Assembly (NCBI GenBank): GCA_016763645.1
Contig: JAESTK010000028.1
Location: 1-54,246, forward strand
Source of the DNA: Flavobacteriales bacterium
GTDB lineage: Bacteria; Bacteroidota; Bacteroidia; Flavobacteriales_G; NORP312
Length of the DNA: 54,246 nucleotides
Direction of reading: 5' to 3'
Positions 41,827 through 49,903 of the stretch are shown here, one piece after another. Under the pieces are notes generated by a model, which saw nothing but the letters and a program-made list of their open reading frames with translations, ran no database searches and was not told the origin of the DNA. Positions within the stretch are counted from its first letter, which is position 1. Each line of letters begins with the position of its first letter. Both the position numbers and the translations under genes were made by a program.

Positions 41827-42090
41827 ATGTGTTTAGTAATTCCAATTGAAGGTTTTGGCCATGAGGCAAACAATTATCGCCTATTTAAGAAAGATAACCA
41901 GAACGAGATTATTGTTCGTTTTTCAACTTCAACACAACAGTTGATACGGGTTGAACTAAAAAATGCTATGGGCAATAAACGACAAAGCGAAACATATAGT
42001 AATCCTGGAAAGGAAATAACTGTTTTTATTAAAGAAGAATTGGCGAAGGAAGACGTAATATTTATATCACTAATTAATCAAGGAGAATGA
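41827..42090 (+). CDS. hypothetical 87-aa protein (orphan beta-sandwich / sorting-domain-like fragment?)
   Basis: It is an ORF only. Its stop overlaps the next ORF's ATG (ATGA). I recognised no motif. Confidence 0.3.
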   Translation: MCLVIPIEGFGHEANNYRLFKKDNQNEIIVRFSTSTQQLIRVELKNAMGNKRQSETYSNPGKEITVFIKEELAKEDVIFISLINQGE

Positions 42091-44552
42091 AGAGAAAAGG
42101 AAGCGTAATTACGGTAGTTCAAATGAAAAAAGCGGCTCTCATTTTGATGATGTGTCTGAGCAATTTAGTAAACACTCAGGCTCAGGGATTATTTGCTAAC
42201 GGAGGCTTCGAAAACTATAGTAGTTGTCCATCTGCATTGGGGCAAGTAAGTAATGTTGATGGTATTTCCGATTGCACCGTAACAACCGATTACTACAATT
42301 GTAGTTTTACAACAAGCAGTTGCGGAAACGCTGTTCCTATTGTTTCTGGAAATGGTTGCATCGGTATGTTTGCACAGCCATGGAGTGCGACAGGTACCTA
42401 CTCAGAATCGGCATTTATTGAGTTAGACGCACCGACAATAAATGGCACACAATATGACATTAAATTTTCACTTTATGCGAGGGATATTTGGTTTAATTCA
42501 TGTTCTGCTAACGGAGGAATAGGACCTTGTTTCAGTTTTGGATTTTATTTTTTTAAATCAACCAACCCCGTAAGTTGTCCTGGTTCGTTTCCATTCGCGG
42601 TCGGTTCGCTGCCAACTCCCGATGTTCTCATCGATGGGTCTCAATTGACCCCACTTAACAATTGGAATGATTACAACCTGTCGTATACGGCTGACGATGC
42701 GTACGATCGCGTATTATTCGGGTGGTTTCCAAATACGCTAGCGTACGATAATTCAGCTTGTCCGAGCAGCCAGGGAGGCTATGTTTACATCGATGATGTG
42801 TGTATAGATGTGCCAGGGGGAAACTGTGCAGTGGTAACGTGTAACTATGCTGTTAACGCAGGAAGCAATGAAATCGTTTGCGAGGGAGGCGCAATTACAC
42901 TATCTGCAATAGCAACTGGCGGAGTGCTTAACACGACATGGATCACATCTGGTGACGGGTCCTTTAATGACGGTTCGTTACTAACAGCTAGCTACATCCC
43001 AGGCCCAAGTGATATTCTAACAGGCTCAGCAACCTTAACCATAACCACAGACAACCCAGGGGCGGGATGCATTGAAGTTAGTGATGATATGCAACTAACA
43101 ATTACAAATTATGCAGATGCAACCATTACCCCATTACCACCAGCGCTATGCCAAAACAGCAATCCGATCAATTTAACTTCGGCAAGTAGCGGTGGAACAT
43201 GGAGTGGCTCAGGAATTACTAATGTAATTTCTGGAGAGTTTACACCAACAGCAGGGGGCAATATAGAAACGATTTACACAATAACAGGCCAATGCCCAGA
43301 TGCCGACACGATTCAGGTAACTGTAATTCCGTCAGACACCGCTTCTTTTTCTTTTCCCCAACCTATATATTGCCTTAGTGATTTCGACCCGACTCCCGCA
43401 ATTTTGGCAACAACTGGTGGGACTTTTACAAGTAGCCCAGCTGGTTTAACTATTTCGTCAAGTACGGGCATAATTAATCTTTCAGCGAGTAGCGCTGGAA
43501 TTTATGGCGTTTTATATACTACAGGGGGCTCATGTAACGACTCTCTAAGTGTTTCAGTTATTTTGAATGATTTTGATGATCCAAGCTTCTCATACTCAAA
43601 AACAGATTACTGTGAAACAGAACTTAATCCATTTCCGAGTATATCCGGATTGTCTGGCGGAAGCTTTTCTATTGATAATGGAGGAGCGATAAGTTCAACA
43701 AATGGTGAAATATACCTCGACTCGAATAATACTGGTTCATATACTGTAAACTACATAACTAACGGAAATTGCACAAATTCTCAAGACTTCATTTTAAATA
43801 TTGAAGTTGAGGTAGACGCAACCATCGATTCTATAGAACCAATTTGCACGAATAACGCTTCTATTTATCTATCTGCGCAAGACCCTGGAGGAATATGGTC
43901 AGGCAGTGGAGTATCTGGAGGTTCCGAACCAACATTTAGCCCAAATGTCGCTGGGGAAGGAAACTGGCAAATTGTTTACGAAATTCCGGGAGTGTGTAGC
44001 GATATAGATAGCGTTCAAATTACTGTTTTACAGTCAGATATAGCAGAATTTGCCTATGTTGATTCGCTTTTCTGTATTCCCGTGGAAGACCCTACACCTA
44101 TGGTAACAGGCACGAGTGGGGGAACTTTTAGTATAGATAATTTTGGAATAATTGACGACTCAACCGGAGAGATAAACCTTGATAATTCTTCAATTGGAGA
44201 TTATGCTATAACTTACATAACAAGTAGCGCGACCTGCCCAGACACTGCCATTCGTATTATTGAAATTTGTGAAGAAATTGTTTTAATAATACCTAAAGTT
44301 TTTTCTCCAAACAGTGATAATATAAACGACATTTTCAGTGTTTCAGGAGATAATATAGCAAACGTTGATGCACAAATTTTTAACCGATGGGGAGAAATGA
44401 TAATGGAATGGAATACTCCAAAGGGATTTTGGGATGGACGAACATCGGCAGGAAAAGAGGCCCCCAACGGAACATATTTCTATCTGATAAAAATAGTTGA
44501 TACTGAAGGGCACGATTTCGGTGAGCAAGGAAGTCTCACGTTAATAAGATAA
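42087..44552 (+). CDS. secreted Ig-like-repeat protein with gliding-motility-associated (T9SS type-B, CHU_C) C-terminal domain
   Basis: Ig-like repeats of about 75 aa contain conserved Cys/Gly (GGTWSGSG, GGTFTSSP, GGSFSIDN). The C-terminus is PKVFSPNSDNINDIF...NRWGE...GTYFYLI. An alternative start is the ATG at 42123. Confidence 0.8.
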   Translation: MKRKGSVITVVQMKKAALILMMCLSNLVNTQAQGLFANGGFENYSSCPSALGQVSNVDGISDCTVTTDYYNCSFTTSSCGNAVPIVSGNGCIGMFAQPWSATGTYSESAFIELDAPTINGTQYDIKFSLYARDIWFNSCSANGGIGPCFSFGFYFFKSTNPVSCPGSFPFAVGSLPTPDVLIDGSQLTPLNNWNDYNLSYTADDAYDRVLFGWFPNTLAYDNSACPSSQGGYVYIDDVCIDVPGGNCAVVTCNYAVNAGSNEIVCEGGAITLSAIATGGVLNTTWITSGDGSFNDGSLLTASYIPGPSDILTGSATLTITTDNPGAGCIEVSDDMQLTITNYADATITPLPPALCQNSNPINLTSASSGGTWSGSGITNVISGEFTPTAGGNIETIYTITGQCPDADTIQVTVIPSDTASFSFPQPIYCLSDFDPTPAILATTGGTFTSSPAGLTISSSTGIINLSASSAGIYGVLYTTGGSCNDSLSVSVILNDFDDPSFSYSKTDYCETELNPFPSISGLSGGSFSIDNGGAISSTNGEIYLDSNNTGSYTVNYITNGNCTNSQDFILNIEVEVDATIDSIEPICTNNASIYLSAQDPGGIWSGSGVSGGSEPTFSPNVAGEGNWQIVYEIPGVCSDIDSVQITVLQSDIAEFAYVDSLFCIPVEDPTPMVTGTSGGTFSIDNFGIIDDSTGEINLDNSSIGDYAITYITSSATCPDTAIRIIEICEEIVLIIPKVFSPNSDNINDIFSVSGDNIANVDAQIFNRWGEMIMEWNTPKGFWDGRTSAGKEAPNGTYFYLIKIVDTEGHDFGEQGSLTLIR

Positions 44553-44613: not shown

Positions 44614-44715
44614 ACTCTTCACTTTAGGCGGAACATGATGAAGGTTTTTAGGAGAGCCTAAATCATTTCGAAAATATTTCCGATGTTTTATATGATTTGG
44701 TTCAAAAAACTGACT

Positions 44716-44723
44716 TAGTTTTG
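44716..44723 (+). promoter_or_regulatory. candidate Bacteroidota -7 promoter box TAGTTTTG
   Basis: It matches TAnnTTTG exactly and lies about 40 nt upstream of the riboswitch P1. Confidence 0.3.
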
Positions 44724-44760
44724 TGCCATTCAATTACCTCTCACGCTTCGTGAATTGTAG

Positions 44761-44892
44761 TTGTTTATAACGAAGAGGTGAGAGAATAGGCTCGTTGACC
44801 CTCTGGCAGCCAACTAAAAGTGTGTTCATCACATTGGAAAATCGGTGCCAATTCCTACTCAGCGAAATGGTTCGTGTGAGAAATATAAATGA
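44761..44892 (+). promoter_or_regulatory. SAM-I riboswitch aptamer
   Basis: P1 is 44761-44769 with 44884-44892. P2 is AGAGG/CCTCT (44774-44778 with 44800-44804), with GA-rich kink-turn-like bulges. P3 is GGCAGCC/GGTGCC (44805-44811 with 44844-44849). The conserved GGTGCCAATTCC is present. P4 is 44858-44880. The aptamer sits upstream of a methionine operon. Confidence 0.8.
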
Positions 44893-44898
44893 GTTACA

Positions 44899-45030
44899 AT
44901 GAAAACGCTAAACGCAATTAGTTTAAAAAAAGGAGTTGAGTCTACCGATTCGAAAGAGGTATTTCTATCATTTTTCTTTCTTGCAACATCTTGTTGCATG
45001 ATGTGGAGCGCATGCTGTTGCATGTGCTAG
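44899..45030 (+). CDS. candidate 43-aa Cys/Met-rich leader or small peptide: MKTLNAISLKKGVESTDSKEVFLSFFFLATSCCMMWSACCCMC
   Basis: The ORF runs from ATG to TAG and is below the ORF-track size cutoff. Six Cys and three Met occur in the last 12 codons. It starts 7 nt after riboswitch P1 and ends 82 nt before metX. Confidence 0.4.
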   Translation: MKTLNAISLKKGVESTDSKEVFLSFFFLATSCCMMWSACCCMC

Positions 45031-45032
45031 AC

Positions 45033-45075
45033 CATCTGTGATTTAACATATCATTCCAGATGTACCGTTTTGTTT
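45033..45075 (+). terminator. weak terminator/attenuator-like hairpin between the small ORF and metX
   Basis: The hairpin is CATCTG-TGAT / ATCA-(TTC)-CAGATG, followed by TACCGTTTTGTTT. The stem is AT-rich and the T-tract is displaced by 4 nt. Confidence 0.3.
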
Positions 45076-45112
45076 AAGGACAAACGAATCCCACATTTTA
45101 ATTTTTAAGATT

Positions 45113-46147
45113 ATGAGAGAAAAAACATATTTATATTCCCAAAAATTTGATCTAGAATCAGGTAAGTCACTTGATTCTGTAGAACTTAATTATACAACTT
45201 ACGGGAAGCTTAACCCCGAAAAAACCAATGTTGTTTGGGTGTGTCATACACTAACGGGAAATTCAAATCCAGCGAGTTGGTGGGGAGGTCTTATCGGTGA
45301 AGAGCGATTATTTGACCCTTATGATAAGTTTATTATTTGCGTTAACACTTTAGGGTCTTGTTATGGTTCATCGGGGCCACTATCCGTCAACCCGTCAACG
45401 GGAAACCAATATTTTAGTTCATTTCCACAGATAACAATTCGAGACATTGTTAAGTCCTTCGAATTGCTAAGAAGTCACCTAGGAATAAATTCGATAGAGA
45501 CGCTTATTGGAGGTTCTTTAGGAGGGCAACAAGCACTGGAGTGGGCAATTGTCAATCCAGAGTTGATCAAAAACTTGGTGGTGGTGGCTACGAATGCAAA
45601 ATATTCTTCTTGGGGAATTGCTTTTAACGAAAGTCAGCGTATGGCTATTGAGTGCGATGAAACGTGGGGAGAAAGTAGCTTACGAGGGGGACTAAAAGGG
45701 TTAGCAGTGGTAAGATCAATTGCATTGTTGAGCTATCGAAACTACCGAACGTATCAAAAAACGCAAGTGGATGACAATCAAAAAACAGATAATTATAGCG
45801 CAGCCTCTTATCAGAAATATCAAGGTGAAAAATTTGTAAAACGGTTCAATGCTTATTCGTATTGGTTACTGTCAAAAGCAATGGATAGCCATGATGTTTC
45901 CAGAAACAGAGGAAGCATCAAAAAAGCTTTATCAAAAATAAAGGCTGAGACAATTGTAATCGGAATAACTACTGATGCATTGTTTCCGATTAGCGAGTCA
46001 CGAACTTTAGTAGAAGGAATAGAAAATAGTGAACTATTAATTATCGATTCGGATTACGGTCACGATGGATTTTTAATTGAAACAGCAACGATTACTAAAT
46101 TATTAAGAGAAAGATTTAACAGACAAACTTTAACAATAGCACAATGA
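45113..46147 (+). CDS. metX: homoserine O-acetyltransferase
   Basis: VWVCHTLTGNS, the nucleophile elbow GGSLGGQQALEW and the C-terminal GHDGFL are typical of MetX. Confidence 0.92.
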   Translation: MREKTYLYSQKFDLESGKSLDSVELNYTTYGKLNPEKTNVVWVCHTLTGNSNPASWWGGLIGEERLFDPYDKFIICVNTLGSCYGSSGPLSVNPSTGNQYFSSFPQITIRDIVKSFELLRSHLGINSIETLIGGSLGGQQALEWAIVNPELIKNLVVVATNAKYSSWGIAFNESQRMAIECDETWGESSLRGGLKGLAVVRSIALLSYRNYRTYQKTQVDDNQKTDNYSAASYQKYQGEKFVKRFNAYSYWLLSKAMDSHDVSRNRGSIKKALSKIKAETIVIGITTDALFPISESRTLVEGIENSELLIIDSDYGHDGFLIETATITKLLRERFNRQTLTIAQ

Positions 46148-47316
46148 AAACAAATAATGAAATAGGCCTTTTTGGCTTCGGAACGGTGGGCAAGGGTTTT
46201 TACCACTATGTATCAACTAGTAAGCAAGAAAACCGAATTCCCAGTATCGTAACAAAGGGCGATGATGGTGGAGATGCAATAATCCAGCGAAATGAAGTAG
46301 GGACGGTAGTGGAATTAATAAATAACGAAAACGATGCTTTACAGATTGTCACAGATGCATTAGAACATGGAAAAATGGTAGTGTCAGCGAACAAAAAGTT
46401 GATTGCCGAAAACTTAAAACATTTGTTGGAAACAGAGAAGAAGCATGACTCCAAGTTTTTATATGAAGGAGCTGTATGTGGCAGTATACCGATCATTCGA
46501 ATTTTGAACGATTTTTATGGTGAAGAACCAATACAAGAAATCAAAGGAATTTTTAACGGTTCTTCAAACCACATTTTAACCCAGCTGTTTGGTTCAGATA
46601 CGAGTTATGAGTCAGCCCTCCAACGAGCTCAAGAATTGGGATTTGCAGAGAAAGACCCTATTTCGGATGTAGGTGGTTTTGACGCATTGTACAAGTTGAT
46701 AATTATTACGGCTCATGGATTTGGTACCATTGTTAATCCGTCAGATGTATTGAATATCGGAATAGAATCGGTTTCAAAAGAGGACGTAGATTTTGCAAAA
46801 GACCATCGGTTTAAAATTAAACAAGTGGCAAAAGTGAGTTCAGAAAATGGAAAAATTTCGCTTTCTGTGGCGCCAACTTTAGTCGACTCGGAGAGTGAAC
46901 TATACACTACAGACGAAGAATATAACGGAGTATTAATTGAGTCAGAAAATGTGGGTAAGCAATTTTATAAAGGTAAAGGAGCCGGGAGTTTCCCCACAGG
47001 ATCTGTTGTTTATTCAGACCTAAAAGCGCTGGATAGCGGATACCAATATTCGTATCGAAAGGCGGAGCAAATAATTCCTGAACTAGATCAAAACGAGCGA
47101 ATTTCTGTTTTAGTAAGGACAGAAGGTTCCGCAGATTTACCACAAGGGTTTAATAAAGTAACTTATATAGAAAAGGGGCTTTATCTGGCGGTAACCACAT
47201 TATCGGATTTAGCTTTAAATAAGGACAATTTAAAATCGAACGGACTATCCGTTATCTTTATCGATAATAATAACATTACTAAACAACTCTTGAATTATGC
47301 AAGTGCAATTAACTAG
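46144..47316 (+). CDS. hom: homoserine dehydrogenase
   Basis: The Rossmann motif is GLFGFGTVGKG, followed by a homoserine-DH catalytic region (ANKKLIA, YEGAVCGSIPII, GF...DV.G.DA..KL). There is an ATGA overlap with metX. Confidence 0.85.
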   Translation: MKTNNEIGLFGFGTVGKGFYHYVSTSKQENRIPSIVTKGDDGGDAIIQRNEVGTVVELINNENDALQIVTDALEHGKMVVSANKKLIAENLKHLLETEKKHDSKFLYEGAVCGSIPIIRILNDFYGEEPIQEIKGIFNGSSNHILTQLFGSDTSYESALQRAQELGFAEKDPISDVGGFDALYKLIIITAHGFGTIVNPSDVLNIGIESVSKEDVDFAKDHRFKIKQVAKVSSENGKISLSVAPTLVDSESELYTTDEEYNGVLIESENVGKQFYKGKGAGSFPTGSVVYSDLKALDSGYQYSYRKAEQIIPELDQNERISVLVRTEGSADLPQGFNKVTYIEKGLYLAVTTLSDLALNKDNLKSNGLSVIFIDNNNITKQLLNYASAIN

Positions 47317-47707
47317 GCAAGAAGGACCATTTCTCTTTAGCATAAGTAACAATACGGGTGCCGTGCTGCATTCTGACGGCAATCCAAATATTGGTGGTTC
47401 TGGACAAGGCTTTCGGCCAATGGAACTTTTGCTCGCTGGAGCAGGAGGATGTGTTTCAATCGACTTAGTTCTTATTTTAAAAAAACAAAGACAGATAGTT
47501 GATGACATTCAAGTTACGGTAAGTGGAGAACGAGACGAGACCCCGGCCAAGGCCTTTCAATCAATTAAGTTCCATTTTGCCTTGAAAGGCGAAATAGATG
47601 AGCCAAAGTTAAATAGGGCCATAGGACTTGCGTTAGAGAAATATTGTTCCGTAGTACAGTCGTTAAACAAAAGCATTAAAATTAACTACACTTATAATAT
47701 TAGTTAA
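47297..47707 (+). CDS. OsmC/Ohr-family protein
   Basis: The 136-aa ORF has a paired Cys signature (GAGGCVSIDL and EKYCSV). It overlaps the 3' end of hom by 20 nt. Confidence 0.85.
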   Translation: MQVQLTRQEGPFLFSISNNTGAVLHSDGNPNIGGSGQGFRPMELLLAGAGGCVSIDLVLILKKQRQIVDDIQVTVSGERDETPAKAFQSIKFHFALKGEIDEPKLNRAIGLALEKYCSVVQSLNKSIKINYTYNIS

Positions 47708-47709
47708 TT

Positions 47710-48876
47710 ATGAAAACAAAAAACTTCGAAACCCTTGCTATTCGTACTCAGTCGGGTCGATCGCAACATCAAGAGCACTCTACACCGCTCCACCTTACAT
47801 CAAGTTATGTATTTGATGATGCAGAGCAGATGCGGGCTCGTTTTTCTGATGAAGAAGATGGAAATATCTATAGTAGATATTCAAACCCCAATACAACCGA
47901 GTTGATTGATAAAATTTGCTTACTTGAAGGAGCTGAAGCTGGTTGGGCAACAGCAACGGGTATGGCTGCGGTTTTTACAACATTTGGAGCATTTTTCGAA
48001 AGTGGAGACCACATTGTTGCGTGCAAGTCGATATTTGGCTCTACACATACCATTCTCACTAAGATATTGCCGAAATGGAATATTACTCATTCCTACGTTG
48101 ACATCAACGAAACAGAATTATGGGAAGCTGCCATTAAGGCAAACACTAAAGCGATTTACATTGAAACACCAACTAATCCAGGAGTTGATATAATTGATTT
48201 AGAATGGGTAGGTGCTTTAGCAAAAAAGCATAATATCCTACTTATTGTGGATAATTGCTTTGCTACGCCATATATTCAACAACCGATTAAGTATGGTGCC
48301 GATTTGGTAATTCATTCTGCTACCAAATACCTTGACGGGCTAGGAAGGGTAATGGGAGGGCTAATTGCGGGTTCTCAAAAGTTGATTGATGAGGTTGAGG
48401 GTTTTGCTCGGCATTCTGGCCCAGCATTGTCACCTTTTAACGCATGGACAATTTCCAAAAGTTTAGAAACTTTAGCAATTAGAATGGAAAAACACTCAGA
48501 AAATGCTCTTTTTTTGGCAAAATGTATTGAAAATCACGAAAAAGTTGAATTTGTGAAATATCCTTTTTTACGCTCTCATCCGCAATATGATATTGCTAAA
48601 AAGCAAATGAAGCTAGGCGGAGGAATTGTCACTTTTGTGGTAAAGGGAGGCGTTGAAACAGGAAGAAGCTTCTTAGATAAATTGCAAATGATTTCGCTCA
48701 CAGCTAATCTAGGCGATACTAGAACAATTGCGACTCATCCAGCATCAACAACGCATGCTCGGTTATCTGAAGAAGAACGACTAGATGTTGGTATTCTCCC
48801 GGGACTTATTCGTATTTCGGTAGGTATTGAAAACATTGAAGACATTAAACTGGATATTTTGCAAGCTTTAAATTAA
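47710..48876 (+). CDS. O-acylhomoserine sulfhydrylase / cystathionine gamma-synthase family PLP enzyme (MetZ/MetB-like)
   Basis: This 388-aa ORF belongs to the Cys/Met-metabolism PLP family. The Schiff-base Lys lies in HSATKYLDG, and the C-terminus has LIRISVGIE. Confidence 0.88.
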   Translation: MKTKNFETLAIRTQSGRSQHQEHSTPLHLTSSYVFDDAEQMRARFSDEEDGNIYSRYSNPNTTELIDKICLLEGAEAGWATATGMAAVFTTFGAFFESGDHIVACKSIFGSTHTILTKILPKWNITHSYVDINETELWEAAIKANTKAIYIETPTNPGVDIIDLEWVGALAKKHNILLIVDNCFATPYIQQPIKYGADLVIHSATKYLDGLGRVMGGLIAGSQKLIDEVEGFARHSGPALSPFNAWTISKSLETLAIRMEKHSENALFLAKCIENHEKVEFVKYPFLRSHPQYDIAKKQMKLGGGIVTFVVKGGVETGRSFLDKLQMISLTANLGDTRTIATHPASTTHARLSEEERLDVGILPGLIRISVGIENIEDIKLDILQALN

Positions 48877-48913
48877 TTTTGCAGGAAGAGGCTAAACTAT
48901 TAAAACTGAAATA

Positions 48914-49903
48914 ATGAAACTAGCTGTTGTAGGAGCTACTGGTATGGTAGGTAATGTAATGTTGCAGGTATTGGCTGAACGAAACTTGCCTATTGATGAG
49001 TATTTATTTGTGGCTTCTGAGCGATCTGTGGGCAAGGAAATAGTATTCAATAACAAGACCTACAAAATTATTGGTTTGGCTGATGCTGTTGACTCACAAC
49101 CCGACATAGCCATTTTTCCTGCAGGTGGAGGCATTTCGAGAGAGTGGGCACCGAAATTTACAGCTGTAGGCTGTACGGTTATTGATAATTCGTCTGCTTG
49201 GCGAATGGATAAAACCAAGAAATTAATTGTTCCCGAGATAAATGCAGATGAACTAACGGCAGAAGATAAAATCATTGCAAACCCTAACTGCAGTACGATA
49301 CAGATGGTTTTAGCACTATTACCATTACACAAACAGTATGGTATTAAGCGACTGGTTGTTTCCACCTATCAATCCGTTAGTGGCACAGGGGTTAAGGCGA
49401 TTGAGCAGATGAATAATGAGCGGGTTGGTAAAAAAGGCGAAATGGCTTACCCATACCCAATAGACATGAACTGTTTACCACACGGGGGAGACTTTCAAGA
49501 TGATGGCTACACCACCGAAGAGCAAAAACTAGTTGATGAAACACGAAAAATTTTAGGAGATAACAACATTGCCATTACCGCCACCGTTGTTCGTGTGCCA
49601 GTAAGTGGAGGGCATTCAGAGTCGATTAATGTTGAGCTAAAAAATGATTTCGACTTAAACGAAGTGATCCAATCGCTAGTGAGAACACCAGGGATTAAAG
49701 TACAAGACAATCCAGATGTAAACCTGTATCCAATGCCACTTTATGCGAAAGGTAAGGATGAGGTGTTTGTAGGCAGACTGCGTAGAGACTTCTCACAACT
49801 CAACACGTTAAATATGTGGGTAGTTTCAGATAACCTAAGAAAAGGGGCAGCTACAAATGCAGTGCAGATTGCCGAATATATTATAGAAAAACATCTGATT
49901 TAA
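48914..49903 (+). CDS. asd: aspartate-semialdehyde dehydrogenase
   Basis: VVGATGMVG is present, the active-site Cys lies in NPNCSTIQM, and the C-terminus has SDNLRKGAATNAVQIAE. Confidence 0.95.
   Translation: MKLAVVGATGMVGNVMLQVLAERNLPIDEYLFVASERSVGKEIVFNNKTYKIIGLADAVDSQPDIAIFPAGGGISREWAPKFTAVGCTVIDNSSAWRMDKTKKLIVPEINADELTAEDKIIANPNCSTIQMVLALLPLHKQYGIKRLVVSTYQSVSGTGVKAIEQMNNERVGKKGEMAYPYPIDMNCLPHGGDFQDDGYTTEEQKLVDETRKILGDNNIAITATVVRVPVSGGHSESINVELKNDFDLNEVIQSLVRTPGIKVQDNPDVNLYPMPLYAKGKDEVFVGRLRRDFSQLNTLNMWVVSDNLRKGAATNAVQIAEYIIEKHLI

Follow-up and report, generated by a model that had tools for sequence, protein, structure and literature searches.

What role does a 43-codon open reading frame (ORF), ending in a run of Cys and Met codons, play between an S-adenosylmethionine-I (SAM-I) riboswitch and a methionine operon? 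The locus lies in a 54,246-nucleotide (nt) stretch of DNA from a Flavobacteriales bacterium (contig JAESTK010000028.1, forward strand), analyzed over its full length and called the window below. We conclude, with a probability of roughly 0.7, that the ORF is a cis-acting sensor leader of the met operon, and that its use is gated by the SAM-I riboswitch. The elements on which the argument turns are as follows.

44899..45030, + strand: Cys/Met leader ORF of 43 codons, MKTLNAISLKKGVESTDSKEVFLSFFFLATSCCMMWSACCCMC and then a stop (ATG at 44899, TAG at 45028-45030, read from the sequence).
44992..45027, + strand: putative regulatory codon run, Cys Cys Met Met Trp Ser Ala Cys Cys Cys Met Cys.
44762..44891, + strand: SAM-I riboswitch aptamer (RF00162), 58.9 bits in Rfam against a gathering score of 44.4, covering model positions 1-108 of 108.
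45113..49903, + strand: operon of metX (45113-46147), hom (46144-47316), an OsmC-like gene (47297-47707), a Cys_Met_Meta_PP enzyme (47710-48876), and asd (48914-49903), from Pfam matches and ORFs.

The tail of the ORF, CCMMWSACCCMC, holds six Cys and three Met in its final 12 residues. Among the 449 ATG-initiated ORFs of at least 15 amino acids on both strands of the window, the runner-up to this count of 9/12 has four, and a six-frame translation of the whole 54 kb contains no other 12-codon stretch with at least seven Cys and Met. The ORF starts 7 nt after the aptamer end and stops 82 nt before the metX ATG (45113). Its start context, ACAAUGAAA, has an A at -3 and AAA as the second codon. 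A short ORF, a plausible start, and pathway codons gathered near the end are features expected of a leader-peptide attenuator, and all are present here ahead of an amino-acid biosynthesis operon. An earlier reading of the window from its letters alone (the sequence-only reading) had given these coordinates, the length, the 9/12 composition, and both spacings, all of which match the sequence. It had also placed a SAM-I riboswitch 5′ of the ORF, in agreement with the full-length RF00162 match above the gathering score, and a metX-hom-osmC-metZ-like-asd operon downstream, an order borne out by the Pfam matches. The aptamer scores 102.6 bits with a custom covariance model built in this analysis and lies on the same strand, in the 5′ leader of metX-hom-OsmC-Cys_Met_Meta_PP-asd; a like context occurs at 34 loci.

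We next consider whether the ORF is conserved. DNA scans with MetX (one genome per GTDB species, and Joint Genome Institute (JGI) metagenomes) gave only relatives of at most 59% identity, in which Cys/Met-rich small ORFs upstream of met genes numbered 22 on the plus strand versus 3 on the minus strand. A protein search supplied closer relatives, with MetX identities of 76, 66, 64, 63, 63, 61, 61, and 60%, and eight contigs were fetched. Each of these closest MetX relatives (8/8) has a SAM-I aptamer and, after it, an intact 40-49-codon ORF whose end is a Cys/Met run. A second contig from the same species as the window (L081, 99.87% identical) is uninformative for this comparison because its leader is identical, without a single-nucleotide polymorphism. 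The leader peptides, designated by locus, are given here.

L162, leader peptide: MKTLNAIITKKGFESIDSKEVFQSFFFLATCCCMMCCTCCCMS
L163, leader peptide: MKALVTNIEKKGLEQTSSKEVFQAIFFICCMMCCACCCMC
L164, leader peptide end: ...VTEMMMHRTRCCSCC
L165, leader peptide end: ...AEKMMFGICCCMY
L166, leader peptide end: ...HFWMMQFICCCCNK
L167, leader peptide end: ...LLMCCCMCCCMQ
L168, leader peptide end: ...FRMHFCMCCCNTNSII
L169, leader peptide end: ...FMFWICCMQLICV
L015 and L056, both metagenome-assembled genomes (MAGs), leader ends: ...MMACCMCCCCCMC and ...MMAYMCCCCNMC

The aptamer and leader are also found together in Pedobacter isolates (MKTRTKQSLTS...AFAYMCCCSI and variants), in Mucilaginibacter, in L091, and in a Vicingus serpentipes MAG (L170), and the complete genome of Catalinimonas niigatensis has a leader (...MGMQSMYSCC) 5′ of metY-metX. 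Orthologous leader ORFs thus occur in L162-L170, L172, L015, L056, Pedobacter, and others, and their known range in Bacteroidota spans Flavobacteriales, Cytophagales, and Sphingobacteriales. The sequence-only reading had proposed that orthologous leaders be checked for an intact ORF and a terminal Cys/Met run, and both are kept in the eight closest relatives and across several Bacteroidota orders. When distinct SAM-I-to-metX spacers were scored for an ATG-initiated ORF whose last ten residues contain CC and at least four Cys/Met, 22/34 had one, versus 0.03 expected from dinucleotide shuffles and 0/34 on the minus strands. Among the 12 spacers that fall short of these criteria, those of Chitinophagaceae-type loci and Flammeovirga instead have a U-rich terminator-like stretch after the aptamer, and L088 and L023 have weaker Cys-run ORFs that fail the scoring.

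In a set of 21 riboswitch-linked leaders (31-49 codons), Cys makes up 37% of the final 12 residues and Met 18%, whereas elsewhere in the peptides their shares are 0.5% and 0.9%. In 20/21, the stop codon lies 0-3 codons past the last Cys. Residue 2 is Lys in 19/21, and this MK(T) start is the sole shared N-terminal feature; besides the terminal run, nothing else is common to the leaders. Cys codons are divided between TGT and TGC at 27:33, with synonymous swaps between relatives. Taken together, the ORF is almost certainly a selected, conserved feature. Leaders of an MCMCQC type, with perfect intrinsic terminators, also lie 5′ of metY-metX in L020, L026, and L027 (each at 1-140, with the 5′ ends cut). 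These are MAGs labelled Deferribacteres/KSB1, "bacterium", and Calditrichaeota, and the Cys/Met leader therefore reaches beyond Bacteroidota.

Two readings that the sequence-only reading had left standing as alternatives can be weighed against these comparisons. One takes the ORF as a chance product of a structured riboswitch expression platform. It is indeed short, uncalled by gene finders, and placed in a hairpin-rich region, and none of the approximately 12 fetched contigs annotates such an ORF in public gene calls. Chance is nevertheless excluded because the ORF is the lone outlier in the window and because of the 22/34 spacers against 0.03 expected and 0/34 on the minus strands; the frame, start position, and stop position are moreover conserved over several orders. 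As far as computation can do so, the comparative data refute this reading, and we consider its residual probability negligible.

The other alternative is that the ORF encodes a small Cys-rich peptide with a function of its own, at the membrane or in binding metal or sulfur, under common regulation with the met genes. In its favour, the Cys-rich tail is hydrophobic, and the placement of the ORF would make such a peptide SAM-regulated. Between the window and L162, the ORF is 87% identical at the nucleotide level versus 74% for metX, and there are 10 nonsynonymous and 4 synonymous codon differences in the ORF, distributed over the three codon positions as [4,6,7] compared with [72,36,165] in the adjacent metX. 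This is not the pattern of purifying selection on a protein. Several of the nonsynonymous changes gain or lose Cys within the run itself (S>C, W>C, S>C, C>S), and among relatives the length, sequence, and Cys positions are free to vary. Hairpins within the ORF covary while the residues they encode change. No homologue of the leader peptide was found by phmmer in 1.84 billion representative proteins or in a word-indexed search, and no Pfam or NCBIfam model matches it. Because of this substitution pattern, the drift, and the lack of homologues, the frame, start, end, and terminal codons appear to be selected and the protein does not; the ORF very likely acts in cis, and a functional peptide is very improbable. 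Of what the sequence-only reading expected from the spacers of related genomes, the intact ORF and its run were thus conserved, while synonymous substitutions between the window and L162 were outnumbered by nonsynonymous ones.

How, then, might the riboswitch and the ORF be connected? The ORF begins within a helix that closes the aptamer, and the features of this region are listed below.

44696..44699 and 44716..44723, + strand: promoter-like elements of Bacteroidetes type, TTTG and a -7 box TAnnTTTG (TAGTTTTG), read from the sequence.
44741..44753, + strand: small 5′ hairpin UCACG CUU CGUGA abutting the extended P1, with CAC...GUG kept in L162 and L163.
44754..44761, + strand: 5′ strand of the P1 extension, from an RNAalifold consensus with which duplex and mini-construct folds agree.
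44892..44900, + strand: 3′ strand of the P1 extension, which with the P1 3′ strand (44884-44891) makes up positions -15 to +2 of the leader initiation region.
44820..44834, + strand: clade-specific hairpin inserted in P3, with covariation between the window (GUGUG/CACAU) and L162 (GUACG/CGUAU), also present in L015 and L056.

The TAnnTTTG box, which is the promoter consensus for Bacteroidetes (PMC9723704), occurs at the equivalent place in L162 (TACGTTTG) and L163 (TACCTTTG), approximately 30 nt 5′ of the extended P1, and from this conserved -7 box we infer a transcription start near 44730. The extra P3 hairpin accounts for the lower Rfam score of the aptamer. In the RNAalifold consensus of the window, L162, and L163, the extended P1 pairs 44754-44769 with 44884-44900 over 16 bp, with a bulged G at 44893, and includes A44899 and U44900 of the leader AUG. 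Once P1 forms in mini-construct folds, 16/18 nt of leader positions -15 to +3 are paired. Contiguous P1 pairs number 11-16 in leader-type aptamers, versus mostly 6-7 in aptamers of the same gene context that have their own terminator. Cognate P1 extensions also pair better than non-cognate ones (lineage-level permutation p ~0.03), with the window clade ranking 1/17. The distance from aptamer to ATG is 5-13 nt in most lineages. It is exactly 7 nt in six lineage groups, namely the window, L162, L163, the Pedobacter group, L091, and L019, and 4-20 nt in nearly all remaining fused leaders.

In SAM-I riboswitches, the ribosome-binding site (RBS) is often part of the 3′ strand of P1 (Barrick and Breaker 2007, PMC2258182). 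Bacteroidetes have no Shine-Dalgarno (SD) sequences; initiation instead needs an unstructured, A-rich upstream region, and an A at -3 is favoured (PMC6847099). Since the extended P1 pairs the initiation region and Bacteroidetes initiation is sensitive to structure, SAM-stabilized P1 would be expected to block leader initiation. In both the folds and the comparative pairing, the predicted aptamer structure occludes the initiation region of what is in effect a riboswitch-controlled upstream ORF (uORF). We therefore lean toward SAM governing leader initiation through P1. The sequence-only reading had described the ORF as stacked on a SAM sensor. The SAM-I aptamer does adjoin the ORF, and the relationship goes beyond stacking, with the 3′ strand of the extended P1 being the ORF initiation region itself. 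Two segments inside the ORF, UAUUUC (44960-44965) and UCAUUUUUCUUUCU (44968-44981), are each able to pair with the P1 3′ side. Their order is wrong for a single anti-P1 helix, and only UAUUUC is conserved.

Further structures lie within the ORF and between it and metX, all on the + strand.

44936..44953, + strand: hairpin HP-A (UUGAGUC UACC GAUUCGA), with UUAGAGC AAACA GCUCUAA in L163, the changes being compensatory and the residues different.
44952..44980, + strand: hairpin HP-B, GAAAGAGG (44952-44959) with UUUCUUUC (44973-44980), from the consensus, with one compensatory pair.
44993..45042, + strand: Cys/Met hairpin enclosing the run and the stop codon, -17 kcal/mol, kept in L162 and L163; its inner stem joins AGCGCAUGC (45007-45015) to GCAUGUGCU (45020-45028), including the U of the stop, and its outer pairs join GAUG (45000-45003) to CAUC (45033-45036).
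45033..45062, + strand: hairpin H3 (CAUCUG...CAGAUG).
45066..45086, + strand: hairpin H4, found at the same place with unrelated sequences in three relatives (CGUUUUGU/ACAAACG, GUUCCA/UGGAAC, AAUCCC/GGGAUU).
45090..45108, + strand: G-less C/A-rich patch (CCCACA) and U-rich tract (UUUUAAUUUUU), just 5′ of metX.

A 13-nt segment of the ORF, AAAGAGGUAUUUC (44952-44964), is invariant in three relatives, third codon positions included, which HP-B explains in part. The UAUUUC within the ORF and the GAAAUA at the aptamer's 3′ edge are complementary. From its sequence, the HP-B region may be a pause hairpin, a switching element, or an alternative partner of the P1 3′ strand. Because H3 and the outer part of the Cys/Met hairpin compete for one segment, the 5′ arm of H3, the two hairpins are alternatives, and L163 shows the same 1:2 / 2:3 alternative (GAUGU:ACAUC versus ACAUCCA:UGGAUGU).

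The output step is clearest in the relatives. In L164, L165, L015, L056, and L170, the Cys/Met hairpin is followed directly by a U tract and forms a canonical terminator that encloses the Met, Cys, and stop codons; the L165 example is AAAUGAUGUUUGGUAUUUGUUGCUGCAUGUACUAGGCAUCAUUU with UUUAUUUUC, at -20 kcal/mol. The metY-linked leaders of other MAGs (e.g., L027 and L034) have clean terminators whose 5′ arm alternatively pairs with a segment at the end of the ORF. A tandem group (L009:180-300, L086:1204-1324, and L090:728-847) has a short-P1 aptamer with its own canonical terminator (AAUCUCU...AGAGAUUUUUUUU) and, approximately 70 nt further on and 5′ of metX, a separate Cys leader (...FSMPMCCCCC). 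Both arrangements, fused and tandem, would amount to equal logic, in which expression needs both low SAM and slow Cys/Met decoding.

For the window itself, constrained folds indicate that GAUGUGG (45000-45006), which makes up the Met-Met-Trp codons, pairs with CCACAUU (45091-45097) and closes the spacer beside the U tract. This helix forms in ribosome-free RNA and when a ribosome has reached the stop, whereas a ribosome occupying the run prevents it. It is a candidate attenuation site, and in these models it would give a trp-like logic. The U-rich stretch at 44968-44982 inside the ORF is preceded by weak local hairpins only. Premature termination near 45097-45110 is a possible output for the window, which we put forward tentatively and at somewhat under even odds; the alternatives are Rho-dependent termination, pausing, and effects on mRNA stability or translation.

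One further output would leave the identity of the ORF as it is and change only what the ribosome does there. In the mycobacterial style, a stalled ribosome would melt a helix between 44971-44980 and GAGAGAAAAA (45115-45124) that hides the metX start. Such unmasking has been demonstrated in Mycobacterium (bioRxiv 10.1101/834739), and minimum free energy folds of the window, L163, L015, and L056 do place the start region of the next gene in a helix with the pyrimidine/AUGAUG segment that precedes the run, which made the helix between the U tract and the metX start attractive. It was then rejected because control windows pair equally well, the consensus lacks it, and accessibility barely responds. 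The fraction of controls with duplex energies at least as good ranged from 0.16 to 1.0, in a test whose downstream start was correct for the window, L162, L015, and L056 and mis-set for L163 and several other loci. In the RNAalifold consensus, the U tract instead pairs locally with GAAAGAGG. With a ribosome placed on the run in silico, accessibility of the start rises from 0.35 to 0.50 in the window and changes by approximately 0 in most relatives. Complementarity, consensus helix, and accessibility thus all leave the mycobacterial output, which is RBS unmasking, unsupported here, and we regard it as quite improbable.

Our favoured model joins these elements in a series of steps. When SAM is bound, P1 would be locked over the initiation region and the leader would remain untranslated. 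At low SAM, a ribosome would load, read 30 ordinary codons, and enter the Cys/Met run, which lies with the stop in a stable hairpin. If charged tRNA-Cys or tRNA-Met were scarce, the ribosome would dwell on the run and hold open the structures whose 5′ arms are built from its UG-rich codons. In the relatives this would be the intrinsic terminator, and for the window we propose two possibilities, the Cys/Met hairpin and the GAUGUGG helix with the CA-rich patch by the U tract. With these held open, transcription would continue into metX-hom-OsmC-metB/Z-asd. By default, with the leader untranslated or the ribosome having reached the stop and left, the structure would form and expression would be attenuated. 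The net logic would be a NOR gate on SAM and charged tRNA, with the operon on only at low SAM together with slow Cys/Met decoding. Within this model, we consider it probable that the Cys/Met codons sense charged tRNA through ribosome dwell time. That the SAM-I closing helix gates ribosome entry to a sensor uORF, such that one leader integrates SAM, Met-tRNA, and Cys-tRNA, is in our view somewhat better than an even bet. The sequence-only reading had already suggested leader attenuation, and the conserved ORF, the leader-type substitutions, and the position of the run within a canonical terminator hairpin in relatives all support that interpretation.

Several observations weigh against this model. 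Neither a consensus scan nor a scan for hairpins with U tracts finds a canonical terminator between the ORF and metX in the window, and L162 and L163 likewise have none. The tail of the Cys/Met hairpin in the window is poor in U (CUGUGAUUU), and the U tract 5′ of metX is 10-14 nt from the nearest local hairpin. The GAUGUGG:CCACAUU helix has just 7 bp and is not statistically significant by itself; its counterparts in L162 and L163 are weaker and out of register, and we estimate a chance expectation of ~0.3 per leader for a helix of this size, which is why it is kept as a candidate only. On the riboswitch side, no conserved anti-P1 (antiterminator-like) element was found in the leader, and a 16-bp AU-rich P1 might form without SAM. 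The run is self-complementary (UGC/GCA), and selection at the RNA level therefore contributes to its composition. Nor is there an evident reason for a Met operon to be induced when Cys is scarce. Finally, a terminator that encloses both run and stop might be blocked by any coupled ribosome, stalled or not, in which case tRNA sensing would be unnecessary.

The last point leads to the main rival, in which the translated ORF is only a relay that couples a translational SAM-I switch to transcription or mRNA fate. The ribosome would act as an antiterminator or anti-Rho device, and the Cys/Met codons would be a by-product of a UG/CA-rich self-complementary hairpin, with no sensing of tRNA charging. 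The run does form a hairpin with itself, and the terminators of L164 and L165 enclose run and stop such that any ribosome near RNA polymerase would block them. A riboswitch-controlled translated leader that senses no amino acid is also known (PMC11260477). We nonetheless consider a pure relay unlikely, because the exact enrichment for Cys and Met spans more than 20 divergent leaders with differing hairpin designs, because the tandem group keeps its Cys leader even though the riboswitch has a separate terminator, and because some metY-linked leaders have the run upstream of the terminator rather than inside it. Furthermore, the Cys frame is always opened by an ATG adjoining P1 and closed 0-3 codons past the run, and the amino acids match the pathway, an accepted comparative criterion for attenuators (PMC1262725).

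If the ORF is a sensor leader as we propose, it resembles several known systems in part. Like the classical attenuators (trpL, hisL, pheL, and thrL), it is short, precedes amino-acid biosynthesis genes in their 5′ leader, and has pathway codons near its C-terminus. Leaders of this kind have been described for Trp, His, Phe, Thr, Leu, Ile/Val and, in Actinobacteria, Cys. As in the classical and ilvB-type attenuators, only the run is conserved, and in the relatives it overlaps a terminator hairpin and its U's; in ilvB-type leaders, the regulatory codons overlap the terminator (PMC1262725). Unlike classical attenuators, the leader here would sense two amino acids, Cys and Met, the start of its ORF is embedded in a riboswitch helix, a canonical terminator is missing from the window, and the host belongs to the Bacteroidota, which lack SD sequences.

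Cys leaders have been described elsewhere, as candidates in Actinobacteria (PMC1262725), as the uORFC-8-2 motif, a Cys-codon uORF 5′ of cysS in Rhodobacterales (PMC8632094), and as mycobacterial poly-Cys small ORF (sORF) attenuators that were shown experimentally (Canestrari et al., bioRxiv 10.1101/834739). In these leaders as in the window, a Cys run ends a small unannotated ORF 5′ of sulfur amino-acid genes, and the proposed sensing is by ribosome pausing. They differ in being leaderless or riboswitch-free, in having Cys only, and in controlling cys genes or cysS. In particular, unlike the mycobacterial leaderless sORFs, the ORF here is preceded by a leader of approximately 170 nt that contains a riboswitch.

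Other systems combine a metabolite-sensing RNA and a short ORF. In Salmonella, the mgtA Mg2+ leader with its proline-rich mgtL, described by Park et al. in Cell in 2010, reportedly uses codon content to report an amino acid. In Mycobacterium tuberculosis, a B12 riboswitch controls a translated ppe2 uORF (PMC11260477). As with ppe2 and mgtL, the leader here has both parts, and translation of the ORF is proposed to determine downstream expression. It differs from them in its SAM-I aptamer and its amino acids, in that the ligand and the sensed amino acids share one pathway, and in that the 3′ strand of P1 is itself the initiation region of the ORF. A Bacillus clausii metE leader with SAM-I and adenosylcobalamin (AdoCbl) riboswitches in tandem is said to have NOR-type logic (attributed to Sudarsan et al., 2006, in Science). 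There, as here, two sensors stand in series in a met-gene leader, and the L009 group has two terminating modules in tandem; unlike in B. clausii, the second sensor here would be a translated ORF read by a ribosome rather than an aptamer. Compared with SAM-I riboswitches whose P1 3′ strand conceals the RBS (PMC2258182), the aptamer family is the same and the translational platform is the same in principle, whereas the direct target is a 43-codon sensor ORF, P1 is approximately 16 bp, and there is no SD sequence to hide.

The operon under this leader encodes homoserine O-acetyltransferase (metX), homoserine dehydrogenase (hom), and aspartate-semialdehyde dehydrogenase (asd). Its OsmC-like gene (window 47297-47707) overlaps hom by 20 nt and has an equal position in L164 and L081. 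In the met operons of L164 (3570-5102), L165 (3572-5098), and L169 (2222-3435), a rhodanese domain (PF00581) is fused to homoserine dehydrogenase, which joins a sulfur-transfer domain to the homoserine branch; the window hom (390 amino acids) has no rhodanese domain. In L015 (1246-1482) and L056 (1263-1496), an ORF of 77-78 amino acids (MKNNKSKYTNTVISENLIGDQSHRNFLEIQ...) without a Pfam match lies between the Cys/Met leader and metX, and this ORF is absent in the window. In the Vicingus MAG (L170:5298-7056), metX-hom is followed by a sulfite/nitrite reductase-type gene (NIR_SIR), and the same leader may also control sulfur assimilation there. On the other side of the leader, the gene at 42087-44552 of the window encodes an 821-amino-acid protein with a C-terminal CHU_C type IX secretion signal, which fits a Bacteroidota origin.

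In the full-text literature searched, from which most subscription journals are absent, and in NCBIfam, we found no Met or Cys/Met leader peptide described for Bacteroidota; nor did that literature describe a SAM-I aptamer gating such an ORF. The sequence-only reading had known of no Cys/Met leader peptide coupled to SAM-I, and here too only the components were found. The element is not categorically new, and combines two known kinds, the leader-peptide attenuator and the riboswitch-controlled uORF. If our reading is true, it would be the first described methionine (and Cys/Met) leader-peptide class, with a fused riboswitch-attenuator architecture that is widespread in Bacteroidota, and would fill a gap, since no attenuator leader for Met was found described in the literature searched. 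Relatives of the device, riboswitch-linked or stand-alone, would also lie 5′ of metY-metX, including in Calditrichota/KSB1-type MAGs. The ORFs form a conserved small-ORF class that gene callers systematically miss. Cultured carriers include Pedobacter westerhofensis DSM 19036, Pedobacter sp. MC2016-15, and Catalinimonas niigatensis.

Leader attenuation and riboswitches are usually treated as alternatives for the same genes, and here they are physically fused or, in one clade, placed in tandem. The arrangement shows how SAM-I riboswitches may work in a phylum without SD sequences, where the long spacers between aptamer and gene would hold a translated sensor ORF. It would provide a natural example, open to testing, of multi-input RNA logic for sulfur amino-acid homeostasis.

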